A stretch of 64,000 bases of DNA from Candidatus Omnitrophota bacterium (GCA_021108075.1 JAIORP010000068.1:10594-74593), one strand, 5' to 3'. Counted from the stretch's first letter, positions 8,674 through 59,783 are shown. Made by a program: numbers and translations. Notes: generated by a model from the sequence alone, not told the origin.

Positions 8674-8685
8674 ACAGGAAAATAG

Positions 8686-40043: not shown

Positions 40044-40132
40044 TGACCAAAGTCATAATGATATTCTCGCTAAATCGTCGAGAAAAGCAGAATTGGGTTT
40101 GGTCATTATTTGATGGAATTGGTATTAGTATA
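40021..40132. repeat. MITE/REP-like repeat, full palindromic copy E, overlapping the stop of the 36672 gene
   Basis: ATACCAATTCCATCAAATAATGACCAAA...GTCGAGAAAAGCAGAATT...TTTGGTCATTATTTGATGGAATTGGTAT is a perfect 28-bp terminal inverted repeat. Confidence 0.85.
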
Positions 40133-40149
40133 AATTGTGAGGATTTTTT

Positions 40150-43100
40150 GTGCGCGCAAAGAAACCGAACCGTTGTTTTGCTTTTTTAATGATCCTGGCT
40201 TTCGGGGTCAATGGCCTCATGCCGTATGCCTACGCGCGAACACCGCTCAGCTTACCTGAACCCGGGGTGATGGTTTCGACCAGTCCGGCGTTTGTGCCGG
40301 TCTTAATCCGGGGCATGACCCTCCATCCCAAAGACCCGTTCCGCCTGGATTTTATTATGGATAGCGGGAATACCGGCCTAGAAAATGACGCGATGAAAGA
40401 AGAGTCACAAAAACTGATCAAATATTTTCTCGCCTCAATGACAATCCCGCAAAACCATTTATGGGTCAACCTTTCGCCTTATGAAGGCGATAAAATCATT
40501 CCACCCTCTTTGGGCCGGACCATGCTGGGCCGTGACCTGCTGGCTCAGGATTATCTCCTGAAACAATTAACCGCGACGCTGATGTACCCGGAAGAAGGAT
40601 TGGGCCAGGAATTTTGGGAAAGGATTTACCGCCAGGCAAAGGAGAAATTCGGAACAACCGACCTGCCGGTGAACACGTTTAACAAGGTTTGGATTTTGCC
40701 GCAGAGCGCGGATGTCTATGAGCATGGCCGGACGGTTTATATTGTGGACAGCCGACTGAAGGTCATGCTGGACAGCGATTACCAGGCCATGATGACAGGC
40801 CATGAGACAATTAAAAATGACGCGATGATGGAATTAGGGGAAACGATGATCCGTGAGGTTATTCTTCCCGAGATTGAAAGAGAAGTGAATGAAGGCAAGA
40901 ATTTCGCGCCCTTACGGCAGATTTACCATTCCTTGATTTTAGCGAAGTGGTATAAAGAAACGATCAAGGAAAGCATCCTGTCTCTGTCTTACGTGGACCA
41001 GCATAAAGTGAACGGCATTGAATGGAACGACCCGGCGTTTAAGGACCGGATCTATGCCCGATATATGCGGGCGTATCAAAAAGGTGTTTTTAATTATATC
41101 AAAGAAGATTATGACCGCTTAAGCCAGGAATTGATCCCCCGCAAATATTTTTCCGGCGGTTTTCAGGACCGGGCCATCGCCTTCAACCGGCCGCGGATTG
41201 CCAGAGAAGATATCAAACCCGTCGGTGATTATGCCATGTTGTCTGTGTCTTTGGACCAGGTGCCCTTGATTACCGTCAGGCAGGCGGGCTTGACAGGGGG
41301 GTATAAAGTCTCAGGGGCCATAGAACTGGATGAGCAAAAACAAATGCTTTCGTTTGAGGGACTGCGCGATGAGAAGTCTGTTTCTGAAAGGGTCGAACTG
41401 CTCATTCAAAAACGCTTGACAAAAAGAGACGTGCTGGACAAAATCAGCCGTTACGCCGGGCATGAAATGATTGACGCGATGATCGCCTGGTTTATGGATG
41501 AGTCGACCATGAACGATATTGTTATTCTTCAACCGAACGCCCTGGGTGTTCACACGGTTTTTGACGTGCGCGTGCTGGCTGTTTCAGAAAATTTTGAAGA
41601 CGAAGGTCTTGTTTTTCTGCATGAAATCGGCCTGGCCATGGGACAAACCGCGGATTTAAACACGGTCCTGGAGGTCGTTGATGATAAAACCACAACACAT
41701 CCGCTCAAATTATCACCCGATAAAATTGTTCAGGACTATCTCGAGGATAAAGCGTGGTACGACCGGCATGTGCAGGTGACAGACAAGCAGGGCGTGAAAC
41801 TGCACTATGCTTTGCGGGCATTGTTCCGTGAACAGTTTTTTCTGGACGATATGGACCTGACGCACCGGATCAAAGTGGCTTTTGAATTTGCTGATGAGAA
41901 GTTGCGCGCGGATGGCGAAGATGTGGACCAGGAAAAACTTTTACAGGAATTAACGGATAAATACAATCGAATCAGCGCGGCCAAATGGGGAGAGAATCAA
42001 AGACAATCCTCGTGGTTTTTAAGGCTGCGGGATGCTAAAGAACGGGTTCTCGCGGCAAGAGACATTTCCTCCTCGCGGGTCGTTGATGAGATCCTCAGTT
42101 TTTATCTCAAGGCCACAGATCCTCAAGAGCCGGTTGAGCGCTATGAACCTTTTAATGCCTTTATCTCGACGACGTTTCAAGGGCGGAAACGGGAAGTGCT
42201 GGTGCCTGTTGTTAAGGAATTATATGGGATGATCATGTATGACAGCGTCTATGTCGACCAGAGAGTCCTATTAATATCGTTGATGTCAAATATTATGGCG
42301 GGTATATTTGAACTGGACCAGTCCATCGTGTCTGGGTTTGAAGTGCTTCTCTTGCGGGATATCCGGCGGTTTGTTTCCGATGAGGTTTTTGTCGCGCCCC
42401 ATCAAGTTAAGGGTATTGATCATTTAGAACGGTATTTTAAAATTGTGCCCGGAAAAGAGTCGTTTCGGACAGTCGTTCAAAAGGCGGCCTTTAGATTGCT
42501 GGGACGACAGCCGTCTGTATTGAGCGTGCCGCAACCGAGGTTGTATTTCCGTGAAGATTTTTTTAAAAAAGTCAGGGAGCAAAGAGATGTGGCTATAAAA
42601 AAACACTTGATCCGGGCGCATAAACAGGCGCATTTGTTTAGAAACGCTATTCGGTCTTTGAGCAACAGTCTGGTCGCGCGTGAGCGGGTCGGCACCCGGC
42701 GGCGCAAATTTACGCTCAGGGAAAACGCGGGTCTGCACATGGATGGATTGTTGCGTCAATTTCAGGAGACGAAAGACGCGGGGAAAAAGGTGTTTTTGGC
42801 AGAGCTTTTATTCTCGTGGTCGGGTTCAGGGCATGAATTTTGGAACAAAGGTAATGCCGGGACCTATCTGGAAGACCTGATGAAATTATTGCCTCAAACA
42901 AAAACAGTCATGCAGAAAAGATCTCTCTTGCAGCAGGCCTTAGGGTTGCCGGTGATGACGATGGAACGGTCCTTGCGGCAGCGCTTTGTCGACTTTGTGT
43001 CCGGGGAACTGGCCGGATTGTTTTCTAAGGTGACGGAATTGGGCGTCGACATTGACCAGGATTTTCAGGACCTGGACGAACGTTATCCGGATGGTTATGA

Positions 43101-44934
43101 TCCTTTAAAAGATAAAGGGCTGGATGATAAGGTTTATGAGCAGCACAATTTGATGGTTGACATTCATCTGCGGATGTGGATATTGACAAAACTGGCGTTA
43201 GAGGGCATGAAGAGCCCGGACACGTCCTCAATCGGTCATGGCATCATACAAAATTTATGGGAGAGCGTTAATAACAGGCCATGGGACAAGAATATCAAAT
43301 CGATGATGATGACACATTTGGAGCCGTTTATTGTTCAAGGCGGATTTGTTTCCGATCGAAGCTTCGCGTCCGTGGTTCGTCCGTCGGATGAATTTTTTTC
43401 TGAGTTAAAGCGTGCCGGGTATCTGAATTGGAATGGGATGATCACGAATCAATTTGTGCGCTTAAAAAGTTCAGCGGAAATGGACCTGCCCGAAAAATAC
43501 CGGGATTTGAAAGAGAGCATTTATCAGGTATTTCAAGAGGCCTTAGACCGGTCAAATCCCGCTGTTGATTCTGCGTTCGCGGAATTGAAATCCCGGATCG
43601 ACCCGGGGCTGGTGAACACGGTGGAACGCGTTGTTTACGGCCGGGCGGAAGAATTTTCGGACGCCATTGTTTCTATTCTGGAGCAAAATGTCCTCAATGA
43701 TAATGTGACTTTTTTTATTTTAATGCGTCATAGTATGGACGAGCAATTGCTCGAAAGAATCGTTTTTAATGAGAATATCCGGATCGAAACCCGGCTGTAT
43801 GCCGCTTCCTGGCTTTTTCCGTCGATGACAACCGGGCGGGCCGCGCGATTGGTTGAGAGCCTCGCGGATGAAACAGAAGCGTTCATCCGCCGGACGATCA
43901 GAGATAATAACCGGGTCCGGTCTTTATTTGATAATGAGCTTTTACAGGATGAAGAAATCAAGGTTTACATGTTAGGCATGCTGATTGACACGCGGCGGCA
44001 TTTAACCCCGATGTCGATGAAGGCTTTTATCTCCATCTCCCGACGGATCCGTTCGGCCGAGGCCTTCGCGTATTTAAACAACGCGAACGCTTATTTCACG
44101 TTCGGGGGGAAGATTTTAGCCGGAACAACAGAACCGGCGGCATTGTTTTATGAAATTCTGAGCCACGAAATATTGCACGCCATTTTGCAAGAGGAACACG
44201 GTTACCGCGGCCAGACGCTCAAAGATTTCACGTTGGAGGAAATGTTGTCTGACATCCACAGTTATATGTTCGCCGACCGGATGGGCATCGAAGATAGTTA
44301 CCGCATTGACGCGGCCAAAATCGATAATTTTTTCAAGGCCGTTAAAGGGAATGATTATTTTACGGTAGAGAGCCATGAGGGCGCGCGGGCCCAGCTGAAA
44401 ATTTTGATAGAACGCCTGGAGGAACTCGGGATCAGTCTACATTGGCAGACGCTGTTAAGGATCGGTATCGCGATGATCCGGGATCCTCTGGTGCGGGAGC
44501 GGTCTCTGGAAGAGACGGTCTCCATCTGGGTTAAGACCGCGTTTTTCGAGCGGCATGGTTTCGCCCGGGTCAAACACAATGAGTTTTATCAGCGTTTTTT
44601 TGATGCCCCGGCGAGCAGTGACGCCGATAAGGATAGAATAAAGATTCTGGACGGCGAGGGCGTTGATAGGGCATTGGACCAGGACAGGGCGATGCTTCCG
44701 GGCGAGGAAGAGGTCGGAGGGATAGACCTGCAGGGCATTGACGTGAACCGTCAGGGCGAGGGGTTTGAGATTCAATTTGATCCGGCATCATTCCGGCAAA
44801 ACGGGGGTCAGGGCATCAACGGGCTTACGCCTGTCATTATCAATGTCACGCCCATTCAGAATATCCTGCCGCTGCTCGGCCTGGGGTCGGACAATGTGTC
44901 TGGATCGCTGGAGCTTTCGCAAAGCAGGGATTAG
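40150..44934 (+). CDS. giant signal-peptide protein, paralog of 36672 (shared N-cap and C-tail), core contains an HExxH motif
   Basis: GTG start after AGGA. Signal peptide ...AYARTP. N-cap similar to 36672 (LIKYFLA, WVNLSPYE, GRDLLAQDY, PVNTFNKVWI). HEILH near aa 1340. C-tail is similar. Confidence 0.85.
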   Translation: MRAKKPNRCFAFLMILAFGVNGLMPYAYARTPLSLPEPGVMVSTSPAFVPVLIRGMTLHPKDPFRLDFIMDSGNTGLENDAMKEESQKLIKYFLASMTIPQNHLWVNLSPYEGDKIIPPSLGRTMLGRDLLAQDYLLKQLTATLMYPEEGLGQEFWERIYRQAKEKFGTTDLPVNTFNKVWILPQSADVYEHGRTVYIVDSRLKVMLDSDYQAMMTGHETIKNDAMMELGETMIREVILPEIEREVNEGKNFAPLRQIYHSLILAKWYKETIKESILSLSYVDQHKVNGIEWNDPAFKDRIYARYMRAYQKGVFNYIKEDYDRLSQELIPRKYFSGGFQDRAIAFNRPRIAREDIKPVGDYAMLSVSLDQVPLITVRQAGLTGGYKVSGAIELDEQKQMLSFEGLRDEKSVSERVELLIQKRLTKRDVLDKISRYAGHEMIDAMIAWFMDESTMNDIVILQPNALGVHTVFDVRVLAVSENFEDEGLVFLHEIGLAMGQTADLNTVLEVVDDKTTTHPLKLSPDKIVQDYLEDKAWYDRHVQVTDKQGVKLHYALRALFREQFFLDDMDLTHRIKVAFEFADEKLRADGEDVDQEKLLQELTDKYNRISAAKWGENQRQSSWFLRLRDAKERVLAARDISSSRVVDEILSFYLKATDPQEPVERYEPFNAFISTTFQGRKREVLVPVVKELYGMIMYDSVYVDQRVLLISLMSNIMAGIFELDQSIVSGFEVLLLRDIRRFVSDEVFVAPHQVKGIDHLERYFKIVPGKESFRTVVQKAAFRLLGRQPSVLSVPQPRLYFREDFFKKVREQRDVAIKKHLIRAHKQAHLFRNAIRSLSNSLVARERVGTRRRKFTLRENAGLHMDGLLRQFQETKDAGKKVFLAELLFSWSGSGHEFWNKGNAGTYLEDLMKLLPQTKTVMQKRSLLQQALGLPVMTMERSLRQRFVDFVSGELAGLFSKVTELGVDIDQDFQDLDERYPDGYDPLKDKGLDDKVYEQHNLMVDIHLRMWILTKLALEGMKSPDTSSIGHGIIQNLWESVNNRPWDKNIKSMMMTHLEPFIVQGGFVSDRSFASVVRPSDEFFSELKRAGYLNWNGMITNQFVRLKSSAEMDLPEKYRDLKESIYQVFQEALDRSNPAVDSAFAELKSRIDPGLVNTVERVVYGRAEEFSDAIVSILEQNVLNDNVTFFILMRHSMDEQLLERIVFNENIRIETRLYAASWLFPSMTTGRAARLVESLADETEAFIRRTIRDNNRVRSLFDNELLQDEEIKVYMLGMLIDTRRHLTPMSMKAFISISRRIRSAEAFAYLNNANAYFTFGGKILAGTTEPAALFYEILSHEILHAILQEEHGYRGQTLKDFTLEEMLSDIHSYMFADRMGIEDSYRIDAAKIDNFFKAVKGNDYFTVESHEGARAQLKILIERLEELGISLHWQTLLRIGIAMIRDPLVRERSLEETVSIWVKTAFFERHGFARVKHNEFYQRFFDAPASSDADKDRIKILDGEGVDRALDQDRAMLPGEEEVGGIDLQGIDVNRQGEGFEIQFDPASFRQNGGQGINGLTPVIINVTPIQNILPLLGLGSDNVSGSLELSQSRD

Positions 44935-45080
44935 CCTTCCGTTATAGCGTTCATTTTTGTGTTTATACATGTATTGTTGCTAAGTTCTATCCTCTGGTCG
45001 GGAACGGATACACGGACAGGGAAAATTTTTTTGACGGCAGGGAAAAAAGGGTTTACTTGGAGTGTTTTTTATGTATAATA

Positions 45081-45163
45081 ATACCAATTCCATTAAATAA
45101 TGACCAAAATCAATTCTGCTTTTCAGAATTAAGATAGAACAATTTATTAATGGATTTGGTATT
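45081..45163. repeat. MITE/REP-like repeat, copy C
   Basis: ATACCAATTCCATTAAATAATGACCAAAATCAATTCTGCTTTTCAGAATT...TTAATGGATTTGGTAT. Confidence 0.85.
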
Positions 45164-45242
45164 ATACAACCTTGAGCGATAGTAGCGTGCCTGTGATCGC
45201 TTCAGGACATTGTCAGAAAAAATATTGGTAAGAAATAAATTT

Positions 45243-45317
45243 GGGGTTGTAGTTCAGCCTGGTTAGAACGCCTGCCTGTCACGCAGGAGGTCGCGAGTTC
45301 GAATCTCGTCAACCCCG
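45243..45317 (+). tRNA. tRNA-Asp (anticodon GTC)
   Basis: Cloverleaf with acceptor GGGGTTG/CAACCCC. Anticodon loop CTGTCAC. T-loop TTCGAAT. CCA not encoded. Confidence 0.95.
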
Positions 45318-45323
45318 TTTTTT

Positions 45324-45357
45324 TAAAAGCCCAAATTAATAATTTGGGCTTTTTTGT
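45324..45357. terminator. bidirectional intrinsic terminator after tRNA-Asp
   Basis: aaaGCCCAAATTaataAATTTGGGCtttttt flanked by A- and T-runs. Confidence 0.7.
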
Positions 45358-45653
45358 CGACGATAACCCGCTCCTTAATTTTTGCACTTAGGATTACTTT
45401 CAAGCTTTCTGCTGTGCCCTCAATTACCACATTTTGCTACATTTTACCCTTCCAAATGGCACCAAAATGGCACCACTTTTTTCAATCCCTTCTTAGCGCC
45501 TAAAATAAGCATCAAATGTCAAAATATAGATCCCCATTATAATGCTAGCTAGGTTTTGGTTGGTGCTAAATCTTGTCATCTATGCAGATAAACTAATATG
45601 GCTAGATATTCAATAAACTGACTTTTTGGGATACCTTGCGACGAGTCAAGTCA

Positions 45654-45682
45654 TTGACAATAATATGACTGAAGGATAGAAT
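45654..45682 (+). promoter_or_regulatory. consensus sigma70-like promoter (TTGACA-17 nt-TAGAAT) at right end of leader copy 1
   Basis: TTGACA 45654-45659. TAGAAT 45677-45682. 17-nt spacer. Confidence 0.6.
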
Positions 45683-45927
45683 GGTTGTATATTTTTTAGG
45701 GGGGAACCTATTTTATAAATGTCTATTTATGTCGGGAATGATATCCAGCCCCGCAGGATGAACTGCTTCAACGACTGTCCTGCGAATAGCTATTACCGAT
45801 AAAAAGCGACATTTTTTATCGGTTTATGCCATAAAAAATGTAAATTTTAAACGATGGAAATGAAATTAAACCAGCTATGTCCGGTTGATCCAGTAAACCG
45901 GACAGTCGTATATTAAATGTTATCTTC

Positions 45928-45996
45928 AAGTAAATGAAGAATGAGGCGTGAAGAAATTCCCATGTTTTGTTCGAAGCATCGTTGGTTACGGGAGAA
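45928..45996 (+). repeat. about 70-bp direct repeat flanking IS630 (left copy), contains mini-ORF MKNEA
   Basis: AAATGAAGAATGAGGCGTGAAGAAATTCCCATGTTTTGTTCGAAGCATCGTTGGTTACGGGAGAA matches the sequence at 47368-47436. Confidence 0.6.
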
Positions 45997-46108
45997 AATA
46001 TTGGTAGCGGAGGCAGCCTGATTCGGAATGGGGGATTTGTTGCGAGGGTGTTACTAGATCCAACAACAGTAAAATTAAAGAAATTTAGTTATATAGATAG
46101 TTTCATGA

Positions 46109-47260
46109 AATTTGCAATATAGCTTGACGAGAACATAACGAATCTATAAGCTGAATACAATGAACGCTATTAAAAGCTCGACGTATTCAACATATGAGGT
46201 TCGAGAGAGAGCCGTTAAAGCTGTGCTATTGGGGCAACAAAAGGTAGCTGTCGCTAAAGCATATCAGGTTGACTACTCTACACTGTTTCGTTGGTGCCAA
46301 CGTTATGAAGGCACTAAAAAATTTTCAGCATTAGCACGTCAGCCTGGTAGCGGACGTCCTAATCTTTTAGATATTCAAACACGAGAAAATTTTCTTAAAA
46401 TTATTACTCAGCCAGCCTCTGAATTTGGATATGAAACTGACTTCTGGACATGTCGCAGGTTAATGCAAATTACTGAACAACGATTAAAGATTAAGGTTTC
46501 TAAGCCAACAATGTGGCGGATATTACGCGATATAGGTTTAACTTACCAAAAACCTGAACGCCGATATTTTGAAACTAATGATAAACTACGAAAAAAATGG
46601 CTTCGTTATGAAGTCCCAAAGATTAAGCGTTCTGTAAAAAAATATCGAGCCATTCTCTATTTTCAGGATGAGTCACATATTTCTTTGACGACGGTATTAG
46701 GAAAGACATGGGCTCCAAAAGGTCAAACGCCAATGCAACGAGTTACTGGTAATCGCGGTGGTTTTGCGGCTATGTCAGCAATTAGCCAAGTTGGAAAATT
46801 AATTTTTCGACTTCATCAAAAACGCATTACTTCTGTAGAAGTTATTGATTTTCTTAAACAGATGCTTAAGCATCATAAATATCGAAATGTAGTAGTGGTC
46901 ATGGATCAAGCTAGACCACATGTATCAAAGAAAACACAAGCATTTATCAAAGAACAGAAAAGATTGCATGTTTTTTATTTGCCATCTCGTTCTCCGGATT
47001 TGAATCCAGATGAACAGGTTTGGAATCATTTGAAACATCAAGAACTCAAAGGCAATGCATCCAGAACAAAAAAAGAACTTAAAAATTTAACCAATAGGAA
47101 GTCCCGAAATCCAGAATTACTAAATGGTATTTTCTTTAGATCCTGCATGGCAAGCTTCTTAAACTAAGCAACCTGTAAATATTTCTCGTCGGATTCTTAA
47201 TAGCGTTCTCTATTTTCAACGTCTTTTTAATTTCTCCTCCGTCGAGGCATATTGCAGATT
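46109..47260 (+). mobile_element. IS630-family insertion sequence (about 1.15 kb) with imperfect terminal inverted repeats
   Basis: Left TTTGCAATATAGCTTGACGAG. Right, as reverse complement, ATCTGCAATATGCCTCGACGGAG. Encloses the transposase ORF. Confidence 0.75.
46160..47167 (+). CDS. IS630-family (Tc1/mariner-like DDE) transposase
   Basis: N-terminal HTH region and DDE core (QDESHISL, MDQARPH, PSRSPDLNPDEQVW). Confidence 0.9.
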   Translation: MNAIKSSTYSTYEVRERAVKAVLLGQQKVAVAKAYQVDYSTLFRWCQRYEGTKKFSALARQPGSGRPNLLDIQTRENFLKIITQPASEFGYETDFWTCRRLMQITEQRLKIKVSKPTMWRILRDIGLTYQKPERRYFETNDKLRKKWLRYEVPKIKRSVKKYRAILYFQDESHISLTTVLGKTWAPKGQTPMQRVTGNRGGFAAMSAISQVGKLIFRLHQKRITSVEVIDFLKQMLKHHKYRNVVVVMDQARPHVSKKTQAFIKEQKRLHVFYLPSRSPDLNPDEQVWNHLKHQELKGNASRTKKELKNLTNRKSRNPELLNGIFFRSCMASFLN

Positions 47261-47367
47261 TTTTGAAATTATCTATAACACAATAAAAAGATAACAACTC
47301 GCTCCATCGGGCAGTCCTGCGCCACCTTCGTCGGCTTGTTCTGCCGATGAGCTCAAGGCGTTATATT

Positions 47368-47436
47368 CAAATAAATGAAAAATGGTGCGTGAAGAAATTC
47401 CCATATTTCGTTCGAAGCAATGTTGGTGGTGGGAGA
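47368..47436 (+). repeat. about 70-bp direct repeat flanking IS630 (right copy), contains mini-ORF MKNGA
   Basis: AAATGAAAAATGGTGCGTGAAGAAATTCCCATATTTCGTTCGAAGCAATGTTGGTGGTGGGAGAA. Confidence 0.6.
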
Positions 47437-47609
47437 ATGACGTTGTCTCAGAATCCTAACCCACCAAATGGACTAGTTTTGGGGGAAAGGTCATATTATG
47501 GATAGAAAAAGTTCTAAAAATAGAACAGGTTTTTGGGGATTTATTTTTTGCACAGGCATTGAACCAACGAGCGCAATATATAAACTTTTCCTTATAAAAA
47601 GGCATTTAC

Positions 47610-49661
47610 ATGTCGATTAATCCTCTTGGCAATATAAAGGCAGAAAATGATCATATAATGCTAGATGCAGCTTTTTATGATACTCAAGAATATAATTCCC
47701 TTATCGAAGACTCTGCTCATCGCATAGTCATCGGTAGACGTGGGACAGGAAAAAGTGCTTTATTTTATAGGCTTCAGAAGCATTGGGGTCATGAAAAAAA
47801 GTCGAATATAATAATTTTATCTCCAGGTGAAACTTATATTATCGGAATTCGTTTTTTTATTAATTGTTTTGGCGACAATCCTTCATATTTAAGAGCTGCT
47901 TGTAAAATTCTTTGGGAGTATGCAATTTTAAATGAAATTATTATAAATTTAGTGCAGGAATATAAGATAAAAAGTGAAACATTATTAAATGATTTGAACT
48001 CTTTCAGAAGTAACTGGGTTAAAGGAGGAAGCAATATTGCATCAAGATTATATTTTCTTTTACAAAATAAATTGAATATTAAAGAGCCAGCTGAAGTAAA
48101 AATAGCCAACTTAACGCGAACTTTAGAAATTAGTAGGGTAAGAAATTTAGTTGCGGACTCTTTTAAATTTTCAAGATATAAATATCGTATAATATCAGAT
48201 CGCTTAGATGAGGGATATGAACCGGATGATAGGGGTGTTGCAATAATCAGCGGATTACTAAGTGCTTTAGATATAGTAACATCATCAATAGAGAGTGTCT
48301 CGTCTGTTACATTTTTAAGAGATAATATTTTTCGTGCCGTGCAACGTTGTGATCCGGATTATTCGAGAAATATCGAAGGTGACATTTTGCGAATACATTG
48401 GGATGAATATCATTTGTTTAATATGATATGTAACCGTATAAGGAAGTCTTTTAAGATATCTCGTGAGCAGAATCTTGTAACCTGGAATAAGGTTACAGCA
48501 AAAGGTGTTACTGGTAAAGAAGGATTTAGAAAATGTCTTCGACAAACATTATATCGTCCTCGTGATTTGTTAGTGCTATTAAATAATGCATTTAACTCCG
48601 CATTGTCTCATAAAAGGAATGAAATAGTTGACGAGGATATTGAATTATCAGCAAAAGACATATCATGTTCACGACTAGATGATCTCAAAAAAGAATACAA
48701 ATCTGTATTACCAGGTTTGGAAGAAATTATTAAGATATTTTCCGGAGGAAGTCCAAAATTTATAGTTTTAGAAGCTAATAAGTTAATGCAGTCTTTGTTT
48801 GATTTGGATGATGTTAATTCTCTAGCTAGACAAACATTAGCAATTATGCAATCACCTTCAGAAGTCTTGAGGATGCTTTTTAGTATCGGGTTTATTGGAA
48901 TTTTAAATAAGGATTCATCTTGTTACGTCTACTGTCATGACGGAAAAGAACCGGATGTCTCAATAGATGAAAAAGCAAATATATTAATACATCCCTGTTA
49001 TTGGATAGCATTGAATTTGCATAATGTCGATTTAGAAGAAGAAATTCGTGATGAGATCCATGATGAATATGATATTGAAGTATGTTCTGAAACTCCTGAG
49101 ATACGTAGTAAAAAAATAGGTCAATTGATTTCAGAATTGAGTTTAATAGACGAAGGAAAAGAACACGCTTCAATGTTTGAGGATTGGTGTTTAAAGGCCA
49201 TACGGATTATTTTTGCTAAAGGTATTGTTAATGTTGAACTTCATCCTAATAAAAATTTAACGCAAAGAAGGGATGTTGTAGGTCGAAATACTGGTGAAAC
49301 GAATGCGTGGAGAAGGATTCTAAATGATTTTAAAGTAAGGCAGGTTATATTTGAAATTAAGAATTATTCGAAAGACCTAAGCGGAGATGAGTATAGGCAA
49401 ATGCTATCATATCTTACTAATGGTTATGGAAAGCTAGGTTTTATAGTCAAGAGAGGAAGTGATGAAACTTTGAGGAAAGGCAAAGAACTGAGGTGGGCCA
49501 AAGAGATCTATGATAAGCATGACAAACGTATTGTTGTTAAATTAACAGACAGTTTTATAGTGCGTTGTCTTTCAAAATTAAGAAATCCTCAGAAACATGA
49601 TGCTCCAGATAAACAACTAAGTTCTCTTTTAGATAATTATCAACGGAGATATCTTAGCTGA
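47610..49661 (+). CDS. P-loop NTPase fused to C-terminal PD-(D/E)xK (restriction-endonuclease-like) domain; candidate single-gene defense protein
   Basis: Walker A VIGRRGTGKSA near the N-terminus. The C-terminal 150 aa have a D...(E-x-K) pattern (RRDVVG ... IFEIKNYSK). Cargo of cassette 1. Confidence 0.7.
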   Translation: MSINPLGNIKAENDHIMLDAAFYDTQEYNSLIEDSAHRIVIGRRGTGKSALFYRLQKHWGHEKKSNIIILSPGETYIIGIRFFINCFGDNPSYLRAACKILWEYAILNEIIINLVQEYKIKSETLLNDLNSFRSNWVKGGSNIASRLYFLLQNKLNIKEPAEVKIANLTRTLEISRVRNLVADSFKFSRYKYRIISDRLDEGYEPDDRGVAIISGLLSALDIVTSSIESVSSVTFLRDNIFRAVQRCDPDYSRNIEGDILRIHWDEYHLFNMICNRIRKSFKISREQNLVTWNKVTAKGVTGKEGFRKCLRQTLYRPRDLLVLLNNAFNSALSHKRNEIVDEDIELSAKDISCSRLDDLKKEYKSVLPGLEEIIKIFSGGSPKFIVLEANKLMQSLFDLDDVNSLARQTLAIMQSPSEVLRMLFSIGFIGILNKDSSCYVYCHDGKEPDVSIDEKANILIHPCYWIALNLHNVDLEEEIRDEIHDEYDIEVCSETPEIRSKKIGQLISELSLIDEGKEHASMFEDWCLKAIRIIFAKGIVNVELHPNKNLTQRRDVVGRNTGETNAWRRILNDFKVRQVIFEIKNYSKDLSGDEYRQMLSYLTNGYGKLGFIVKRGSDETLRKGKELRWAKEIYDKHDKRIVVKLTDSFIVRCLSKLRNPQKHDAPDKQLSSLLDNYQRRYLS

Positions 49662-49727
49662 AAGTATTTTTAATGAAAAATTAAACCATGCCTCAAATTA
49701 AAGGCATTTTAAATCACTGTCTGTGTA

Positions 49728-49880
49728 GTGACCTGCCCCAACTAGTTGCTCCATTAATTGTGGGAGACCGATGGTTGATGGAACTATCCTAGGTTTCATA
49801 TAGATTTTATTTTAGGACAGGATCATTAAAATCCCCCTAATATGTTAATAAACAGGTTCTAAACTTGTCTAACCATCCCC
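49728..49880 (+). repeat. cassette trailer repeat, copy 1 (about 150 bp) ending in CCATCCCC
   Basis: GTGACCTGCCCCAACTAGTTGCTCC...TTCTAAACTTGTCTAACCATCCCC. Repeated at 51770-51922. Confidence 0.85.
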
Positions 49881-49889
49881 GCCATTTAA

Positions 49890-49924
49890 CCCGAGTTCGT
49901 TTAACGACGAGCTCGGGTTTTTTG
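49890..49924 (+). terminator. intrinsic terminator at start of leader copy 2
   Basis: CCCGAGTTCG-loop-CGAGCTCGGG followed by T7. Confidence 0.7.
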
Positions 49925-50220
49925 TCGACGATAACCCTCTCCTTAAATTTCGCATTTAGGATTACTTTCAAACTTTCTGCTGTGCCCTGAATTACTACAT
50001 CTTGCTACATTTTACCCTTCCAAATGGAACCAAAATGGCACCGCTTTTTTAATCCCTTCTTATCGTCCAAAATCAGCATCAAATATCAAAATATGGATCA
50101 CCATTACAATGCTAGCTAGGTTTTGGTTGGTGGTAAATTTTGTCATCAGTGCGTATAAACTAATATGGCTTGATATTCAATTAACTGACTTTTTGGGGCA
50201 CCTTGCGATGAGTCAAGTCA

Positions 50221-50249
50221 TTGACATAATTTAGGGGGGAGATTAGAAT
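50221..50249 (+). promoter_or_regulatory. consensus sigma70-like promoter (TTGACA-17-TAGAAT), leader copy 2
   Basis: TTGACA 50221-50226. TAGAAT 50244-50249. Confidence 0.6.
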
Positions 50250-50303
50250 GATTGTATGTTTTTTGGCGATAATATCGGATATTGATATCTTCCATTATTC
50301 AAC

Positions 50304-51635
50304 ATGCCGGATGTTGACGGTGTATATCTATACTGTCAGATACCATTTACAGGGGGAAGTATGAGTGAATCGATGACAATGAAGATGCATGACGTTTGTG
50401 AATCCCTTTTTTTACATGATTTGATGCGCCTCTCGACGCATTTCACCAATACCATTGACTGGGCGCGCTTTGGCATCCTCTTGGCGCAGTTCCAAGACCA
50501 GTTTGCCGGTATATCTCAAGCCCTTTACGAGTTCCTGGAGCAGGAAGAGAAAGAAGAGTTCTTGAAATGGTTTCTGCTTAAATGGGGGGAGATCAATATC
50601 TTGCCCCAGAGCGAGATTGATGAATATGACCGTAAATACGCCAGTTATGATCATTATCGCTGGGGCAAACGTAAAATCAATGGCATTGAAACGATCGTGG
50701 TCGATCTTCAGGAACAGTACGGTTTTGACTTCGCCCTTGACCGGGACTATAAAACCGTTGCTGATGGGGCCTGGCTTTTGTGTGATTTCCTGCATGATCA
50801 ATATTCTTTTAAAAAGACACATGTCCGTGAAAAAGATGTCATTATCGATGCCGGGGCTTATTTAGGGGAGTCGGCTTTATTTTTTGCACATCAATTGCGC
50901 GGGCAGTGCACGGTGCATTCCTTTGAAATTTCTCCCCCGAACTATCAAACCTTATTGGATAACCTGGCGATCAACGGACTAAAAAATATTCATCCCAACC
51001 GCCTGGCATTATCCGATAAGAGCGGGGAACAATTCGTGTTCACGCATGACCGGGGTAAATCTTCGGTCGACAGGAAAGTCGGCGGGACCAGCGATATGTG
51101 TACCGTTGAGACGGTTACCCTGGACGATTATGTTGCCCGGCACACATTAGAGCGTGTGGATTTCATTAAAATGGATATCGAGGGGGCTGAGATGGCGACC
51201 TTACGCGGGGCAGTTCAGACCATAAAGCAATTCAAACCACGGCTCGCAATCAGCATCTACCATTTGCCGGAGGACACGGTGTCCATCCCCCGGATTATTA
51301 AAGAACTGGTGCCTGAGTATCATTTCCATTTTAACTGGTATGCCAAAAGAAAGGGATCGGACGCGATCCTCTATGCCTCTATCGACGAGCAGCCGAAAGA
51401 AATGAAGATGAAAAGAGTGCCGGTTTTTGACCATAAGCTTTTTAATGAAGTTATTTACCGCTCCCTGTTTGAGATGGATGATCTGAAAGCCCAGCTGAAA
51501 GAAAAGCATGAAAAAAAGTGCCAGGAACTCGAGCAACGCATCGAGACGATCCATAATTCAAAAGTGTATGGACTGGTCCGGTGGTATTGGCGGACCATCT
51601 CGGCGGCAAAAAAATTGTTCAAGAAAAATTCGTGA
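50304..51635 (+). CDS. FkbM-family SAM-dependent methyltransferase with C-terminal coiled-coil extension
   Basis: VIIDAGAYLGESALFFAH and FIKMDIEGAE blocks. Alternative start ATG 50361 after AGGGGGAAG. Confidence 0.75.
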   Translation: MPDVDGVYLYCQIPFTGGSMSESMTMKMHDVCESLFLHDLMRLSTHFTNTIDWARFGILLAQFQDQFAGISQALYEFLEQEEKEEFLKWFLLKWGEINILPQSEIDEYDRKYASYDHYRWGKRKINGIETIVVDLQEQYGFDFALDRDYKTVADGAWLLCDFLHDQYSFKKTHVREKDVIIDAGAYLGESALFFAHQLRGQCTVHSFEISPPNYQTLLDNLAINGLKNIHPNRLALSDKSGEQFVFTHDRGKSSVDRKVGGTSDMCTVETVTLDDYVARHTLERVDFIKMDIEGAEMATLRGAVQTIKQFKPRLAISIYHLPEDTVSIPRIIKELVPEYHFHFNWYAKRKGSDAILYASIDEQPKEMKMKRVPVFDHKLFNEVIYRSLFEMDDLKAQLKEKHEKKCQELEQRIETIHNSKVYGLVRWYWRTISAAKKLFKKNS

Positions 51636-51769
51636 CAGTCACCTCTGCCCTCGTTTAGCCGCTAAGAGGCCCCTTTATATAAACTACGGAAAAAGTTGTA
51701 GACGCTGTTCCTATATTTGTGTTGCAGATATAGGTGCACATAAGATACGGGGTAGGCAAGGATGATATT

Positions 51770-51922
51770 GTGACCTGCCCCAACTAGTTGCTCCAGAATT
51801 TGTGAGAGACCGATGGTTGATGGAACTATCCTAGGTTTCATATAGATTTTATTTTGGGACAGGATTATTAAAATCCCCCTAATATGTTAATAAACAGGTT
51901 CTAAACTTGTCTAGCCATCCCC
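51770..51922 (+). repeat. cassette trailer repeat, copy 2, ending in CCATCCCC|G
   Basis: Near-identical to 49728-49880. Followed by a tRNA-3'-like remnant and a copy of the post-tRNA terminator (51923-51965). Confidence 0.85.
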
Positions 51923-52034
51923 GTTTTTTTAAAAGCCCAAATTATTCATTTGGGCTTTTTTTTAGGGGGAACCCAAGCAAAATGGCAAAGCCATTCTTGC
52001 CCGGGTGTGTCAAAATATCCTATTTTGACTGCCC

Positions 52035-52464
52035 CGCCATTTAACCCGAGTTCGTTTAACGACGAGCTCGGGCTTTTTGTCGACGACAACCCTCTCCTTT
52101 AAATTCTCATTTAGGATTACTTTCAAACTTTCTGCTGTGCCATCAATGACTACATTTTGCTACATTTTACCCTTCCAAATGGCACCAAAATGGCACCTCT
52201 TTTTTCAATTTCTTCTTATCGCCTAAAATCAGCATCAAATGTCAAAATATAGATCGCCATTACAATGTTAGCCAGGTTTTGGTTAGTGGTAAATCTTGTC
52301 ATCAGTGCGTATAAACTAATATGGCTTGATATTCAATCAACTGACTTTTTGGGACACCCTGCGACGAGTCAAGTCATTGACATAATTTAGATGAGAGACT
52401 AGAATGTTTTTATGTCTTTTTTTGGGGGGGGGGATAACATTGGATATCAATATCCCGTGATATA
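52035..52464 (+). repeat. cassette leader repeat, copy 3
   Basis: Terminator 52045-52078, conserved core, then the promoter. G10 tract at about 52427-52436. Confidence 0.85.
52377..52405 (+). promoter_or_regulatory. consensus sigma70-like promoter (TTGACA-17-TAGAAT), leader copy 3
   Basis: TTGACA 52377-52382. TAGAAT 52400-52405. Confidence 0.6.
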
Positions 52465-52655
52465 CGGAAAACCCTGATATGTGATGTTAGCCAGCAAAAG
52501 CGACCTATCAACGATGTCTCTACGACAAAAACAGCATTATTTTGATATAAAATAAAAAGAGGGACTGGCTTTTTAGTGAGTCCTAAAATATTTAACGGAA
52601 AACCGTACATTATATGTTATGTTTCAAGAATCACTAATCAAATTAAGGAGTAAAA

Positions 52656-53669
52656 ATGGCTGAAGATAAAAATCAAAAGAAAGATGAAGTTGTAAAAACC
52701 GGAAATCCGCTAGTGTTTATAAGTCATGACACTAGAGATGCTAAACTCGCCGAAGCCTTTAGCGGACTTCTAAAAAGTGTTAGTGCTGGTGTTTTGAAAT
52801 CGTTCAGAACATCAGATAGAAAAGGGAATCAAGGAATTGAATACGGAGTCGAATGGTATCCCGAAATCATAAAGAATATTCAAAACGCTTCTGACGTTGT
52901 TTGCCTTCTTACAGAGAGAAGTATAAATAGGCCTTGGATTCTATTTGAAGCAGGAATGGCAAAAGGGAAGCTTGAAACTCCTATTTTAGGTGTAGCGTTA
53001 GGCATATCTTTGAAAGACGCATCATCTGGTCCGTTTGCTCAATTTCAGAATTGTGGAGATGATGAAGAATCTTTAACTAAATTAGTCTTTCAATTGGTAG
53101 ATCGTATCCCCAATTCAGAACCAGACGAAGAAACGATAAAGTTTCAGGTTGGCAAATTCAAAGAATCTATTGCAAAAATATTAAAAGCCAAGAACAAAGA
53201 CGCAAAACCTGAATCTTCAGAATTATCAAGTAGAGATAATTCATCGGCAAAACTCTTTGAAGAAATTAAGGTTATGTTTCAAGATCTACCGTCAAGAATT
53301 GAAAGTAATATGAATCCTGAATTACGTAGCAGAAAAAGACGTCGCTTTCATCCAATGATGATGGAAGAAATGATGCATATGAGTAAAAACAGACATATTG
53401 GAATAATGATGGCGCTTAGTCTTTTCAAAGAACCGATGCCTTGGCTGTATGAAATTGGCATGGAAACCATTAGGACGATTAAAACAGGAAAAACGAAAGC
53501 AGAAAAGAAAAGGGCATTTTCAGAGTTCCAAGAAATAGTTGAAATGTCCACTCGTCATCCAATGATGCGTGAATTTTTTATGGATTCAAAAGATGACTAT
53601 ATGCTTTTTAGAGAATTGCCTGAGGTGCTATCAGAAAGTTTTTATAGATTAATGATTGAAGAAAAATAA
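52656..53669 (+). CDS. TIR-domain protein with Met/His-rich C-terminal domain of unknown function
   Basis: N-terminal VFISHDTRDAKLAEAF...VVCLLTERSINRPWILFEAG fits the bacterial TIR (TIR_2-like) pattern. The C-terminal 200 aa have no recognisable family. Low GC. Confidence 0.65.
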   Translation: MAEDKNQKKDEVVKTGNPLVFISHDTRDAKLAEAFSGLLKSVSAGVLKSFRTSDRKGNQGIEYGVEWYPEIIKNIQNASDVVCLLTERSINRPWILFEAGMAKGKLETPILGVALGISLKDASSGPFAQFQNCGDDEESLTKLVFQLVDRIPNSEPDEETIKFQVGKFKESIAKILKAKNKDAKPESSELSSRDNSSAKLFEEIKVMFQDLPSRIESNMNPELRSRKRRRFHPMMMEEMMHMSKNRHIGIMMALSLFKEPMPWLYEIGMETIRTIKTGKTKAEKKRAFSEFQEIVEMSTRHPMMREFFMDSKDDYMLFRELPEVLSESFYRLMIEEK

Positions 53670-53813
53670 AAAAACATAACAAATCACTACACTGGATTTT
53701 TACTCCGCTGCGCTCCGTAAAAACCAGTGAGTTCAAGCGTTGGGCCTCATTAACGATGGCCTGCATAGAACATCCGAACCACAATCTTGGCACATGATGC
53801 GAGAATGAATTAA

Positions 53814-54641
53814 ATGACAAAAACTAAGACCGATGGCAAGAAGCCCATATTCCCTCTTGGTCCGCACCCACTTCCACCACACCCTTGTGGCATTCACTTA
53901 ACTGCCATGGACCAAAACACTGCGTACGATGTTCCGCATCGAGTGCTCCAGGATGAACATTTGCAACCTGAGGAGTTCACTGTCGCAATGACCCAATGGA
54001 TCGTGACTCACCACCTTAGCCCCGAAGCCATTGAGCGAGATCGAATACGTTGTGAAGCTTTGACGAGACAGGGTCTTGTCGACCCTGTGCAGCGGTTCCC
54101 TATTAACTTGAGCACGCAGAAAGGCAATTGGGCAGAGGTATTGCTCGCTGAGTATATCGCTGCATCGTGTGCTGTCAAAGTGCCAGTGTATCGTCTTCGT
54201 TACAACCCGAACGTGGATCAGTCAATGAAGGGGGACGATGTGCTTGCATTTGATCTCGATTCAAATCCTGTTCGTGTGTTGGTCGGTGAAGCTAAGTTTA
54301 GATCGACTCCTTCAAAAGCAGTAGTGGAGGAGCTTGTTGATGCACTGGTTAGATCACACTCTGGGAATATTCCTGCATCTTTGCAATTCGTTGCGGATCG
54401 CTTGTTTGATTCTGGGAACGACGAGTTGGGAGCGAAGGTCATGGCTTGCAATGGGCTATTTGCTCAGGGACGTCTGCAATTGGATTATGTTGGATTACTC
54501 GTAAGCACAAGGGTTGCTCATCGTCACATGGAGAGGAACGCTAAATCAAATGTTCGCCGTCTTGCCGTAATATCGCTCGGGCTATCGGACCCTGAGGGAA
54601 TTGTGACTGCATCCTATGTCAGGGCTGGTGAATACGTATGA
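53814..54641 (+). CDS. hamA: HamA-like (DUF1837-type, PD-(D/E)xK-like) Hachiman component
   Basis: About 275 aa with GDDVLAFDLD....LVGEAKFRS (D..D..E-x-K). ATGA overlap with a downstream DExH helicase. Abrupt rise in GC. Confidence 0.6.
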   Translation: MTKTKTDGKKPIFPLGPHPLPPHPCGIHLTAMDQNTAYDVPHRVLQDEHLQPEEFTVAMTQWIVTHHLSPEAIERDRIRCEALTRQGLVDPVQRFPINLSTQKGNWAEVLLAEYIAASCAVKVPVYRLRYNPNVDQSMKGDDVLAFDLDSNPVRVLVGEAKFRSTPSKAVVEELVDALVRSHSGNIPASLQFVADRLFDSGNDELGAKVMACNGLFAQGRLQLDYVGLLVSTRVAHRHMERNAKSNVRRLAVISLGLSDPEGIVTASYVRAGEYV

Positions 54642-57600: not shown

Positions 57601-58003
57601 GTTTATAACCAATCCCGCTGCAAGCGTCTCGAGGATTCGAACGGCTTTGCTGGATTCTGCCACTGTGACAGCACTTTCAGCTTCGGTTTCAGCGTCGACT
57701 CTCGAATGGCTTCATCTTCTTTCGGCAGAGCACGGGACTAAAGCCGTTTCACCTCCGCAGTGCGCAAGATTTCGGTTGGAAGCACCCAATGAGGTGAAAA
57801 CTCTTCATGCGCGGCAACTATCGCCGGGTAGTTCCATTGTTCTATGTTCGACCGACACTCGGTTTAAGGTTGAAGTGAAAGCGACCGAACAATTGCCCTT
57901 CGACAATTTTGTAAACGACCCCCGTTTTATCTTCGCCCGAGATGGCGACGTTTGGGTTCAACAGTGCCGAGACCCCCGTATCGATTATTTAAGTATGGGA
58001 TGA
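54638..58003 (+). CDS. hamB: HamB-like SF2 DExH-box helicase (Hachiman component)
   Basis: Motif I TSAGKTR. Motif II VIDEGH. Helicase C-like block TTTLGQGVNI. 1121 aa. Confidence 0.7.
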   Translation: MSLSAQNARILMQSMRTQRIQNLVAQSKAKQVLREVREVPANFPRFESDLDDRVTFIAYGLLAAGCSLIERNETAEGYMELYAAADILESAHRTEIANHQASALHCLIGAMAFYACGQYSRAFVLIKNLEAVTPSAGIIASFLRKDRTRLIDKLNEVLLAPVPVFNEKSQFDDWALTICVARSLSIATEHAISGQPELLAIADTILRDAMTISVGASHPAFWWLARLLRLMLKDYGNGALWSVLPPFFGPEGKAQVDSYVKLLAFQKPPVIELWQSQTVALQLALNSQNRGGVINLRTSAGKTRVAELAILHTLWADPNAKVLYLAPFRSLAFELERTFSKTLAPLGYSVSHLYGGSRFSGVDRELFNEGHITIATPEKTKAMLRASPELFKPVKLVVIDEGHLLGGNERNVRNEMFLEYLRLLARVRGARILLLSAVLPNAEDLAAWVGGAPDALVKSSWKPSAERRGIIQWRKTGVTIEWLGDERCFNPHFIEFKKVPHVTPKGKIKSRAFPKNKTEAVAATATRLAALGPVLIFAGQAQWVPSMVRAVLLSLGPEAPVHRWPDTEWRLLDAVCREELGDDSLEITAARLGVVCHSNKLPPHVRIALEKLMAKHPPRIIVATTTLGQGVNIRISSVIVATTFIGANLQISKRDFWNICGRAGRAFVDGEGKILFAIDGTRSAWNVKTDEATAANYFDIVNIDQVESGLLHVVKYMHTIAANVGIPFATLLEMAANDNFDRCGENRVNVEGVMDWIDDQLLALHVEYKGDAPELTVDWVDDAFRDSLAAIQERARREPDHDDQLINFLKARVAGVQRKVPSPEARRAVISSGLPLSVGILAFNQLDVFREMVDRYLASETDADALGEMVTEFETWARQHAKIIVKGMPEQEQLDKIRPQWLDGGSLRKIVETCGDDATGICTGLYGYQLPWLFHSVAQKLDKLAEENRIEAFAKVGLLVELGLPTEAAAKVFLAGVRSRVAAVELSRFITNPAASVSRIRTALLDSATVTALSASVSASTLEWLHLLSAEHGTKAVSPPQCARFRLEAPNEVKTLHARQLSPGSSIVLCSTDTRFKVEVKATEQLPFDNFVNDPRFIFARDGDVWVQQCRDPRIDYLSMG

Positions 58004-58138
58004 CTATAGGGGAGATTTTAGGGACATGCCTGAATGTTGAAATGTGATGTAGCAAAAATATTACAAACATTGCCCAACAAGACAATCCAGCGGGCGTCTT
58101 ATAGCCGCCGCTGATTTTGGCGTTATGAGATACAAATA

Positions 58139-58546: not shown

Positions 58547-58617
58547 TCTCATAACCAGCAGATTGAGCGGGCGTCAGGACGCCGCTCATCTGCCAGCGTT
58601 ATGAGAAATTAAAAATT

Positions 58618-59698: not shown

Positions 59699-59783
59699 CA
59701 AGGCTTTTGCAGCGGAGCGCAAAAAGCCGCGCCCGCTGAAAAGCGACGTTGCAGGAAAATAAACAATTAAAAAGGTTGGATAG

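Follow-up and report, generated by a model that had tools for sequence, protein, structure and literature searches.

Downstream of a tRNA-Asp gene in a 64,000-nt stretch of DNA from Candidatus Omnitrophota bacterium (GCA_021108075.1 JAIORP010000068.1:10594-74593, hereafter the window), small units of cargo genes stand in tandem, bordered by copies of a module that resembles the 3' end of the tRNA and the terminator behind it. We propose, with belief and doubt about evenly balanced, that integrase-less units have accreted in tandem at an attachment (att) site formed by tRNA-Asp and its terminator, each unit bringing along a portable insulator and promoter. Orientation, position, a direct repeat, an empty site in a sister strain, swapped partners around the terminators and a decay gradient agree with the tandem accretion at tRNA-Asp that an earlier note on this DNA had described, while the boundaries of the junctions proved not to be uniform. 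The locus combines two known kinds of structure, namely tandem islets at a tRNA gene, similar to cis-mobilizable elements (CIMEs), and clusters of integron cassettes without an integrase.

The window corresponds to positions 10,579-74,578 of ENA ERZ26872899 NODE_2 (168,659 bp). Contig positions 1-92,442 were read, i.e. window coordinates -10,577 to 81,864, assembled from the loci L021, L015, L001 and L024; beyond the window, L001 lies downstream, L015 and L021 lie towards the left end of the contig, and L024 is a further flanking locus. The variable island covers 28 kb from tRNA-Asp to a TrmO-like gene, and the TrmO_N gene near window position 73,030 seems to mark its end.

Junction modules downstream of tRNA-Asp

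The tRNA gene was the sole match to Rfam at E<=1 over 44-54 kb, where no other known RNA family was detected. The features of the junctions are as follows (window coordinates unless a locus is named).

45242-45318, plus strand: tRNA-Asp (GTC) without encoded CCA, the anchor of the array (ARAGORN; Rfam tRNA, 71.3 bits)
45304-45355, plus strand: left 52-nt direct repeat, final 14 nt of the tRNA and terminator A (repeat search, 90% to 51910-51961; terminator -14.8 kcal/mol, z -5.0)
45356-45705, plus strand: leader 1, beta type, starting GTCGACGATAACCC, promoter at 45654-45682 (alignment; blastn, 87-88% to leaders 2 and 3; promoter scan, 11/12)
49728-49881, plus strand: trailer 1, ending CCATCCCCG (95% identical to 51770-51923; no attC-like fold and no match to the attC models R1 and R2 described below)
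49882-49920, plus strand: CCA and terminator B, first copy (-23.4 kcal/mol, z -6.1; terminator scan)
49921-50296, plus strand: leader 2, promoter at 50221-50249 (alignment, promoter scan, blastn)
51770-51923, plus strand: trailer 2, ending CCATCCCCG, with the 3' half of a post-gene element (GTAGACGCTGT...TGGAAC) as its first ~55 nt
51910-51961, plus strand: right 52-nt direct repeat, tRNA-3'-like 14 nt and terminator A', right edge of the block absent from the sister strain
51962-52035, plus strand: alpha spacer, 74 nt, ending CTGCCCCG (directly after terminator A in the sister strain; related copies after terminator A at L001 13066-13105 and 14773-14793)
52036-52073, plus strand: CCA and terminator B, second copy (-20.5 kcal/mol, z -5.3)
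52074-52454, plus strand: leader 3, promoter at 52377-52405 (alignment, promoter scan, blastn)
L001 12988-13105: junction J3, trailer end, terminator A and a degenerate leader that extends to a beta-lactamase gene
L001 14660-15081: junction J4, trailer end, terminator A and a 71%-identical leader with a perfect TTGACA-17-TAGAAT

Counted with their terminators, the three leader copies of ~390 bp (45319-45708, 49882-50296 and 52036-52454) share 87-89% pairwise identity in alignment and blastn, and a 1-nt indel and the lack of an open reading frame (ORF) common to the copies mark them as non-coding; the earlier note was right about three non-coding copies and overstated their likeness as near-identical. 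Each copy opens with a strong intrinsic terminator and closes with a promoter, as had been described: a hairpin and T-run are followed by ~330 bp and then by TTGACA-17-TAGAAT at the far end. Terminator A, after the tRNA, folds with -14 to -15 kcal/mol and terminator B, before leaders 2 and 3, with -20 to -23 kcal/mol, all at z -5 to -6, while the three leader-end motifs are the sole 11/12 promoter matches in the 8 kb scanned. In the J4 leader 12/12 hexamer positions are kept versus 10/17 in the spacer, at 71% identity overall, so the predicted promoter clearly appears to be maintained under selection. The divergence among the three leaders is star-like (11-13% differences); a mosaic or gene-conversion signal was sought, and with three sequences the pattern is merely star-like. 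Alpha- and beta-type leaders are homologous over the promoter-proximal ~240 nt. Leader 3 is trailed by an imperfect palindrome (52432-52492), which is not a canonical attC and matches neither R1 nor R2; the post-leader palindromes are bounded by GATAAC...GATG↓TT (arrows denote crossover or boundary points).

Just 3' of the -10 box every leader carries a T-run followed by 2 to 10 G (45693-45708, 50258-50266, 52414-52432 and L001 15013-15024). This tract could be slippage-prone and affect expression.

The two trailers that close cassettes 1 and 2 were confirmed as 154-nt blocks of 95% identity ending in CCATCCCCG. After trailer 2, a fragment of the tRNA 3' end and a copy of the post-tRNA terminator are indeed present: 51910-51961 matches 45304-45355 at 11/14 positions of the tRNA end and 36/38 of terminator A, giving 90% over 52 nt (E 6e-12). 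The further idea that the trailer mimics the tRNA 3' end is significant only over this 52-nt block with the terminator included, as trailer likeness to the tRNA beyond the final 14 nt was not above chance in local alignments against shuffles. The CCA that follows CCCCG matches the expectation for a tRNA gene with encoded CCA, which the resident tRNA-Asp lacks. An almost identical tRNA-Asp in a metagenome-assembled genome (MAG) of Nitrospirae does encode CCA, reading exactly CAACCCCGCCA; this unrelated genome was the sole match of the tRNA 3' end pattern.

Two other views of the trailer were tried and rejected. As a decayed whole tRNA, its alignment was not significant against shuffles and neither ARAGORN nor Rfam detected anything; as a structured RNA, it reached a z of only -1.5 to -1.9.

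Post-gene elements of ~120-150 nt, whose 3' half makes up the first ~55 nt of the trailers, form a family of their own directly after stop codons (window 51696-51825 and 61707-61836; L001 17674-17790, 18561-18720 and 20034-20100). They begin (T)CGTAGACGCTGT, three end ...TG(T/A)TGGAAC, and one copy closes with the perfect inverse ACAGCGTCTGC. The attC models gave no match on them, and a second, long type of recombination site is one possible reading of the family.

Around the terminators the partners are swapped combinatorially, which becomes apparent when the junctions are listed in order. J0 consists of tRNA, terminator A and beta leader; J1 of trailer, CCA-terminator B and beta leader; J2a of trailer, terminator A and the 74-nt alpha spacer ending CTGCCCCG; J2b of the spacer end, CCA-terminator B and beta leader; J3 and J4 of trailer end, terminator A and an alpha-type leader. 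The observed combinations can be written as tRNA-A-beta, X-B-beta, X-A-alpha and Y-B-beta. With the decayed junctions J3 and J4 past the window end, there are at least five units, where the earlier note had counted three. The three tRNA-proximal leaders are intact, while the distal copies show truncation, a fall to 71% identity or insertion of a miniature inverted-repeat transposable element (MITE), and this decay gradient is what accretion at the tRNA predicts.

All six module junctions share one orientation, lie within 21.6 kb downstream of tRNA-Asp and each sit at a cargo boundary; no module copy was found in the 56 kb upstream of tRNA-Asp or in the 15 kb past J4, i.e. in the other ~70 kb of the 92 kb. 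The modules are thereby tied to tRNA-Asp and to cargo edges. An ordinary dispersed repeat of MITE-like or repetitive extragenic palindrome-like type, present throughout the genome and clustered here by chance, would gain some plausibility from an abundant MITE that does occur in this genome, and from an inspection that covered 92 kb of it. We nevertheless regard it as highly improbable, given the placement of six out of six copies in a single stretch by the tRNA, the lack of terminal inverted repeats at the module ends and the inclusion of the tRNA 3' end and a terminator copy in the module.

That the tandem order is unreal, with repeats having led to a chimeric MAG contig, is almost certainly not the case. 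The contig comes from short-read metagenome data assembled at 14.6x, and other assemblies break inside leaders or trailers, as such an artefact would have it. Against this, the module copies are 5-13% divergent and separable by k-mer assemblers, the independent assembly ERZ26872904 reproduces J0 and most of J1 on NODE_290 and all of J2 on NODE_767 at 100% identity, and the sister-strain contig described next has single-nucleotide polymorphisms (SNPs) of its own and a different continuation.

An allele without units 1 and 2

The search for an empty-site variant at tRNA-Asp, which the earlier note had called for, was successful in a sister strain. Its contig ERZ26872896 NODE_2527 (locus L026) carries a 98%-identical copy of the 1594-aa gene upstream of the tRNA, is identical to window 44901-45355 through tRNA-Asp and terminator A save a 1-nt indel, and then continues with 51962 onward. 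At the empty-site junction, terminator A is followed by TTAGGGGG, and the continuation ...GGGCTTTTTTTTAGGGGGAACCCAAGC... equals the alpha spacer 51962-52035 at 71/74 positions (97% to 51962-52043). Past ...TGCCCCGCCATTTAA (CCCCGCCATTTAA) the contig departs into DNA without a counterpart in the 92 kb, which constitutes a second polymorphism at the next junction. L026 joins terminator A to 51962, and the DNA in between is therefore an insertion/deletion (indel) polymorphism:

45356-51961, plus strand: 6,606-bp block (units 1 and 2) absent from the sister contig, bounded by the 52-nt repeat

An assembly collapse is not a suitable explanation, given the SNPs specific to this contig and the 14-nt overlap that a jump between repeats would require. 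In the sister strain the alpha spacer stands directly behind terminator A, and it therefore probably represents the original DNA downstream of tRNA-Asp. Two hallmarks of tRNA-targeted islands are found here: the tRNA 3' end is part of a flanking 52-nt repeat, and a related strain has the site unoccupied.

More structural variation was observed inside unit 1. In the strain of SRR32473238 (L012 1-120 versus window 46675-46794, 99.2% identical), the IS630 is truncated and joined to different upstream DNA, which holds an attC-like start (CAATAACAAATTG...).

Cargo genes and integron attC sites

The cargo of each unit is unrelated to that of the others, and the principal genes are the following.

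46092-47277, plus strand: IS630-family insertion sequence inside a short ORF-less cassette, transposase at 46160-47167 (Pfam DDE_3, E 1.4e-35; 38-nt terminal inverted repeats)
47610-49661, plus strand: Sll1717-family P-loop ATPase, 683 aa (NCBIfam NF047389, E 4e-77)
50361-51635, plus strand: FkbM-family methyltransferase (Pfam Methyltransf_21, E 5e-22; TIGR01444, E 3e-28)
52656-53669, plus strand: TIR-domain protein in a cassette of its own (Pfam TIR_2; PADLOC TIR-TM, E 3.5e-14)
53814-58003, plus strand: Hachiman HamA at 53814-54641 and HamB at 54638-58003 (PADLOC HamA, E 2e-97; HamB, E 0)

The IS630 copy and the ATPase of cargo 1 were recovered as described earlier, while the nuclease assignment has weaker backing, the C-terminal domain of the ATPase being weakly PD-(D/E)XK-like (PADLOC PDC-M36A, E 2e-7, residues 550-618). 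Cargo 2 is an FkbM methyltransferase as claimed, and its start codon is likely 50361, in agreement with the deposited 424-aa gene call. For cargo 3 the TIR, HamA and HamB genes are all present, whereas the supposed simple pairing of TIR and Hachiman dissolves into a ~12-kb succession of individual attC-bounded cassettes. HamAB has a GC content of 51% versus 38-42% around it, and the spread of cargo GC from 34% to 51% indicates different sources.

The earlier note had compared the locus to a non-integron cassette platform. This description does not hold: cargo 1 contains a canonical attC site, another separates the TIR gene from HamA, and more come after HamB and the small ORFs behind it. They were detected with a covariance model, R1, built from aligned clinical class-1 attC sites only (aadB, aadA1, cmlA1, blaOXA-10 and dfrA1, from two Salmonella plasmids), with R-box and L-box pairs; the aadA1 attC sequence was confirmed in the plasmids before the build, and R1 was run with filters off. 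It gave eight full-length plus-strand matches at E<1, each directly downstream of an ORF, and zero minus-strand matches at the same threshold. A second model, R2, was built from seven local hits, with the 47289 and 59140 sites outside its training set and the 59693 site in it; R2 adds the held-out sites 59140-59218 and L001 15805-15875, together with another three towards the contig's left end.

47289-47366, plus strand: attC (R1 34.6 bits, E 3e-6, full length; held out of R2, E 3e-5)
53674-53745, plus strand: attC between the TIR gene and HamA (R1 30.5 bits, E 4e-5, full length)
58072-58128, plus strand: attC after HamB (R1 E 0.021)
58549-58604, plus strand: attC after a 135-aa ORF, with textbook R''/R' boxes and two extrahelical bases (R1 E 0.011; single-stranded DNA (ssDNA) fold -21.6 kcal/mol, z -7.1)
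59140-59218, plus strand: attC overlapping the start codon of the next ORF (R2 E 7e-6, outside the training set; fold z -5.3)
59693-59754, plus strand: attC after a 162/170-aa ORF (R1 E 0.35; R2 score discounted for this training member)
L001 15805-15875: attC (R2 E 0.004, held out)
L001 16833-16890, plus strand: attC (R1 E 0.003)
L015 379-447, plus strand: attC (R1 E 0.5)
L015 2163-2246, plus strand: attC (R1 E 0.03)

The sites are close to the class-1 consensus (for example GCCCAACAAGAC...TTTCAAGTGTTGGAG), possess the R''-L''...L'-R' architecture with two extrahelical bases, and fold as ssDNA with z -5 to -7. A scan for this architecture returned 10 plus- and 3 minus-strand hits, versus ~0.9 in shuffles; an energy-only scan was discarded as unspecific, with many matches in coding regions. 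Five plus-strand sites (53674, 58072, 58549, 59140 and 59693) fall within 6 kb, each immediately behind a stop codon, so that the region shows what defines a cluster of attC sites lacking an integrase (CALIN): at least two close attC in one orientation, each after an ORF. Cargo 3 comprises cassettes for TIR, HamAB and three ORFs (135, 112 and 162 aa) and, behind them, genes with unconfirmed boundaries. In cargo 1, a 78-nt repeat (47360, twin at 45919) starts exactly at G↓TTAT of the attC R' box, which is a signature of paralogous cassettes. Taken together with the attC at 47289, this repeat shows cargo 1 to contain an ORF-less cassette into which IS630 has inserted, and next to it the ATPase gene, which starts with the 78-nt repeat just after the attC and lacks a confirmed attC on its downstream side.

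Considering these sites, the whole region could be read as a chromosomal integron array or CALIN, with the leaders as gene-less promoter cassettes or as remnants of Pc-attI moved by IntI from elsewhere. Canonical attC on either side of the leaders in the orientation of all genes, together with a second attC cluster near the left end of the contig, would be in line with this, as would the imperfect palindrome bounded by GATAAC...GATG↓TT behind each leader, and gene-less cassettes of Vibrio superintegrons carry sense-strand promoters (Blanco et al. 2024, PMC11014356). We consider this reading very unlikely. Neither R1 nor R2 matches leaders, trailers, terminators or post-leader palindromes at E<10, and trailer, terminator and post-leader palindrome were rejected as attC candidates because of unconvincing folds (trailer z ~0) as well. 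The modules do not start after G↓TTRRRY and have no attC end of their own, as gene-less promoter cassettes would, and their left edges are not at G↓TT; the leaders, having no attC at their borders, are less likely to have arisen through IntI. Furthermore, modules occur only downstream of tRNA-Asp and are absent from the upstream attC cluster, the edges of the 6.6-kb indel are the tRNA-3'/terminator repeat and not attC, and no intI lies within 92 kb. This last negative refers to Phage_integrase matches on the genes checked in contig 1-92,442; the array itself reaches the contig's left end, and an intI may lie beyond it.

The second attC cluster just mentioned lies at contig ~2,700-8,000 (L015 379-447, 1101-1170, 2163-2246 and 3009-3084; L021 2687-2747), amid small same-strand ORFs (AbiEii, AIM24, DUF2314, GNAT) and without an integrase up to the contig end. 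The deposited 162-aa gene call has its ATG at 59210, across the predicted G↓TT crossover of attC 59140-59218 (ATG↓TTAGAA), so that insertion of the cassette would create this start codon.

Proposed mechanism and putative recombinase

According to the accretion we favour, a unit would consist of a ~350-bp leader with the promoter at its far end, the cargo and, in the better-preserved copies, a ~150-bp trailer and terminator. The trailer end and terminator resemble the tRNA-Asp 3' end and its terminator (52 nt, 90%), and we therefore regard trailer/terminator and leader as two att-like arms, which would together make up attP. Recombination with the chromosomal site, i.e. the tRNA 3' end and terminator A, would insert a unit beside the tRNA and push older units outward. 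A single crossover just 3' of the terminator T-run (GGGYTTTTT↓G) would explain J0, J1, J2a and the sister allele without extra assumptions, and unit 2 entering first and unit 1 second would account for these as well as for the placement of the loop polymorphism. The terminator would block read-through from the tRNA or the preceding unit, and the leader promoter would drive otherwise promoterless cassettes in the manner of an integron Pc (compare PMC11014356).

The absence of integrase, excisionase and relaxase genes from the cassettes was borne out by domain scans of the units, and an integrase immediately outside the window, which the earlier note had named as a possible objection, was likewise absent: no integrase, resolvase or relaxase domain (Pfam) was found on any gene checked in contig 1-92,442, including the left end of the contig and the DNA downstream of the island. 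The sole mobility gene in the units is the IS630 transposase with its own inverted repeats. The own tyrosine or serine integrase of a typical tRNA island is thus missing from the units and from the 92 kb, whereas the att-like sites on both sides and the lack of recombination and transfer genes are as in CIMEs. As the 92 kb encode no recombinase, we infer, and this is inference only, that one would act in trans. The genomic context of P0004 homologues in Omnitrophota was also considered; it is a core-genome locus with an Xer-like recombinase and was uninformative.

Several points weigh against accretion by site-specific recombination. Neither a recombinase nor an excised circle or attP junction was seen in the material compared, which comprises 92 kb from a single MAG contig together with a sister contig of 7.5 kb. 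Arm-type repeat motifs were not found except for a tandem AAATGGCACC. Leader terminator and sigma-70-type promoter activity are predictions. Three exact or degenerate leader patterns gave 0 matches in GTDB representatives, IMG/VR and JGI metagenomes, and these collections therefore provide no independent evidence of unit movement between genomes. The breakpoints do not all fall at CCCCG↓: homology boundaries vary by junction and lie after CCCCG, after the T-run or after CCATTTAA, the simplest single crossover being the one just 3' of the T-run. Such varied boundaries fit a messier history or homologous recombination as well as one site-specific crossover, and the sister allele could alternatively be a RecA-mediated deletion between the 52-nt repeats and not a never-occupied site.

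Some of these points lead to homology-driven stacking, which we rate as possible but on the unlikely side. Here the ~0.4-0.6-kb module (tRNA-3'-like end, terminator and leader) would serve as the block of homology at which incoming DNA, e.g. from transformation, is joined by a single RecA crossover, with unequal crossing-over duplicating or deleting units and without a dedicated recombinase or att site. The lack of a recombinase within 92 kb, the differing homology boundaries and the shared ~240 nt of alpha and beta leaders all suit this explanation, and the 26-nt perfect stretch in the 52-nt repeat flanking the 6.6-kb indel would be enough for rare RecA events; natural transformation, which is reported to shuffle the cassettes of chromosomal integrons (PMC12614218), counts in the same direction. 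On the other hand, leaders that differ by 11-13% in a star-like pattern are a poor substrate for RecA and unlike the products of recent unequal crossing-over, and the cargo is unrelated between units. In addition, compared with J0, the polymorphic positions of the 52-nt repeat are all in the left-copy state in the sister strain, which places the exchange in the last 14 nt and not in the 26-nt identical stretch; this is a weak pointer, as it would arise by chance with a probability of ~0.3.

A more far-reaching version of the favoured accretion, which we judge quite unlikely, is that leader and trailer form a portable, integrase-free integron platform with an att site for a recombinase targeting tRNA-Asp, an insulating terminator, a Pc-like promoter and an attI-like palindrome (GATAAC...GATG↓TT), and that two recombination systems are nested. 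IntI acting in trans would load cassettes at the palindrome and shuffle single cassettes, while a second enzyme would move whole promoter-led cassette strings between genomes. If true, this would explain how CALINs arise, spread and get expressed.

Relation to known systems

CIMEs of the ICESt1/ICESt3 family in Streptococcus thermophilus are att-bounded elements without integrase, excisionase or transfer genes, which stand in tandem at one attachment site and for which a trans recombinase is presumed. The units likewise show att-like repeats, no integrase and tandem stacking, with a presumed trans recombinase. They differ in that no cognate integrative and conjugative element or integrase is in view, in the shared ~0.5-kb terminator-promoter module, in their integron cassettes and their host phylum Omnitrophota, and in that mobility is deduced from a single indel polymorphism. 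With islands and prophages inserted at tRNA genes, the locus shares insertion at the tRNA 3' end, a direct repeat containing this end (52 nt here), an empty site and heterogeneous GC; in contrast to them, it has no integrase within 92 kb, its repeat runs through the terminator, and the units are 2-12 kb in size with at least 5 stacked.

The likeness to CALINs lies in canonical attC (R''/L''/L'/R' boxes, extrahelical bases) in one orientation, each after an ORF, without intI nearby; here, however, the array has a tRNA gene at its head and is broken at intervals of a few kb by junction modules, which are not attC but copies of the tRNA-Asp 3' end and its terminator. A further likeness is the presence of defence genes among the cassettes (compare 10.1101/2024.07.02.601719). 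The gene-less promoter cassettes of Vibrio (PMC11014356) are similar as non-coding units with sense-strand promoters able to switch on promoterless cassettes, whereas the leaders lack recognisable attC bounds, carry an upstream terminator, are paralogous and are tied to the tRNA att-like repeat.

The pdif modules of Acinetobacter plasmids are small, recombinase-less, Xer-dependent modules bounded by short conserved sites. They resemble the present units as small cargo modules without their own recombinase, presumably moved by host enzymes; in the present case no XerC/D-type 28-bp sites were identified, the location is a chromosomal tRNA locus, and the junction blocks are much longer.

Other features of the contig

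The MITE is ~85 nt long with terminal inverted repeats ATACCAATTCCATTAA...TTAATGGATTTGGTAT, and at least 11 copies occur in the 92 kb, all intergenic. Copies lie in the window at 1051-1168, 8565-8686, 25362-25505, 32162-32216, 35980-36061, 40020-40135 and 45045-45188, and in L001 at 12867-12961, 15054-15135 and 17791-17872; one is located just upstream of tRNA-Asp and two are inside decayed leader modules.

A ~330-aa segment of the 1594-aa protein encoded upstream of the tRNA (40150-44934) is common, at ~60% identity, to >4,000 proteins, mostly from Omnitrophota, in which its fusion partners are enzymes of many kinds; next to the 1594-aa protein, one of 1123 aa (36672-40043) joins the segment to phosphoglycerate kinase. 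Further upstream, 2247-32088 holds a ~30-kb same-strand cluster of B12-binding radical-SAM enzymes (at least 8), methyltransferases, polysaccharide deacetylases, an epimerase and a PMT_2 glycosyltransferase, which is probably a pathway for glycan or natural-product modification. In an intergenic gap of this cluster lies a near-perfect 75-nt hairpin (27377-27451, -21 kcal/mol as ssDNA) bounded by GTTTAAC...GTTAATG, which has no unpaired spacer and is undetected by the attC models.

Biological significance

CALINs are common, while their formation, movement and expression are poorly understood. At this locus, integrase-less cassettes, including Hachiman and TIR, sit in small repeat-bounded units at a tRNA gene, each with a terminator and a conserved, predicted strong promoter, and the finding places canonical integron attC in Candidatus Omnitrophota, a little-studied phylum of ultra-small bacteria. 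A block of two units is present in one strain and absent in another, so that filled and empty alleles both exist in sibling samples. Should the units be mobile, they would convey strings of cassettes together with a built-in expression signal, fully dependent on host or helper enzymes.

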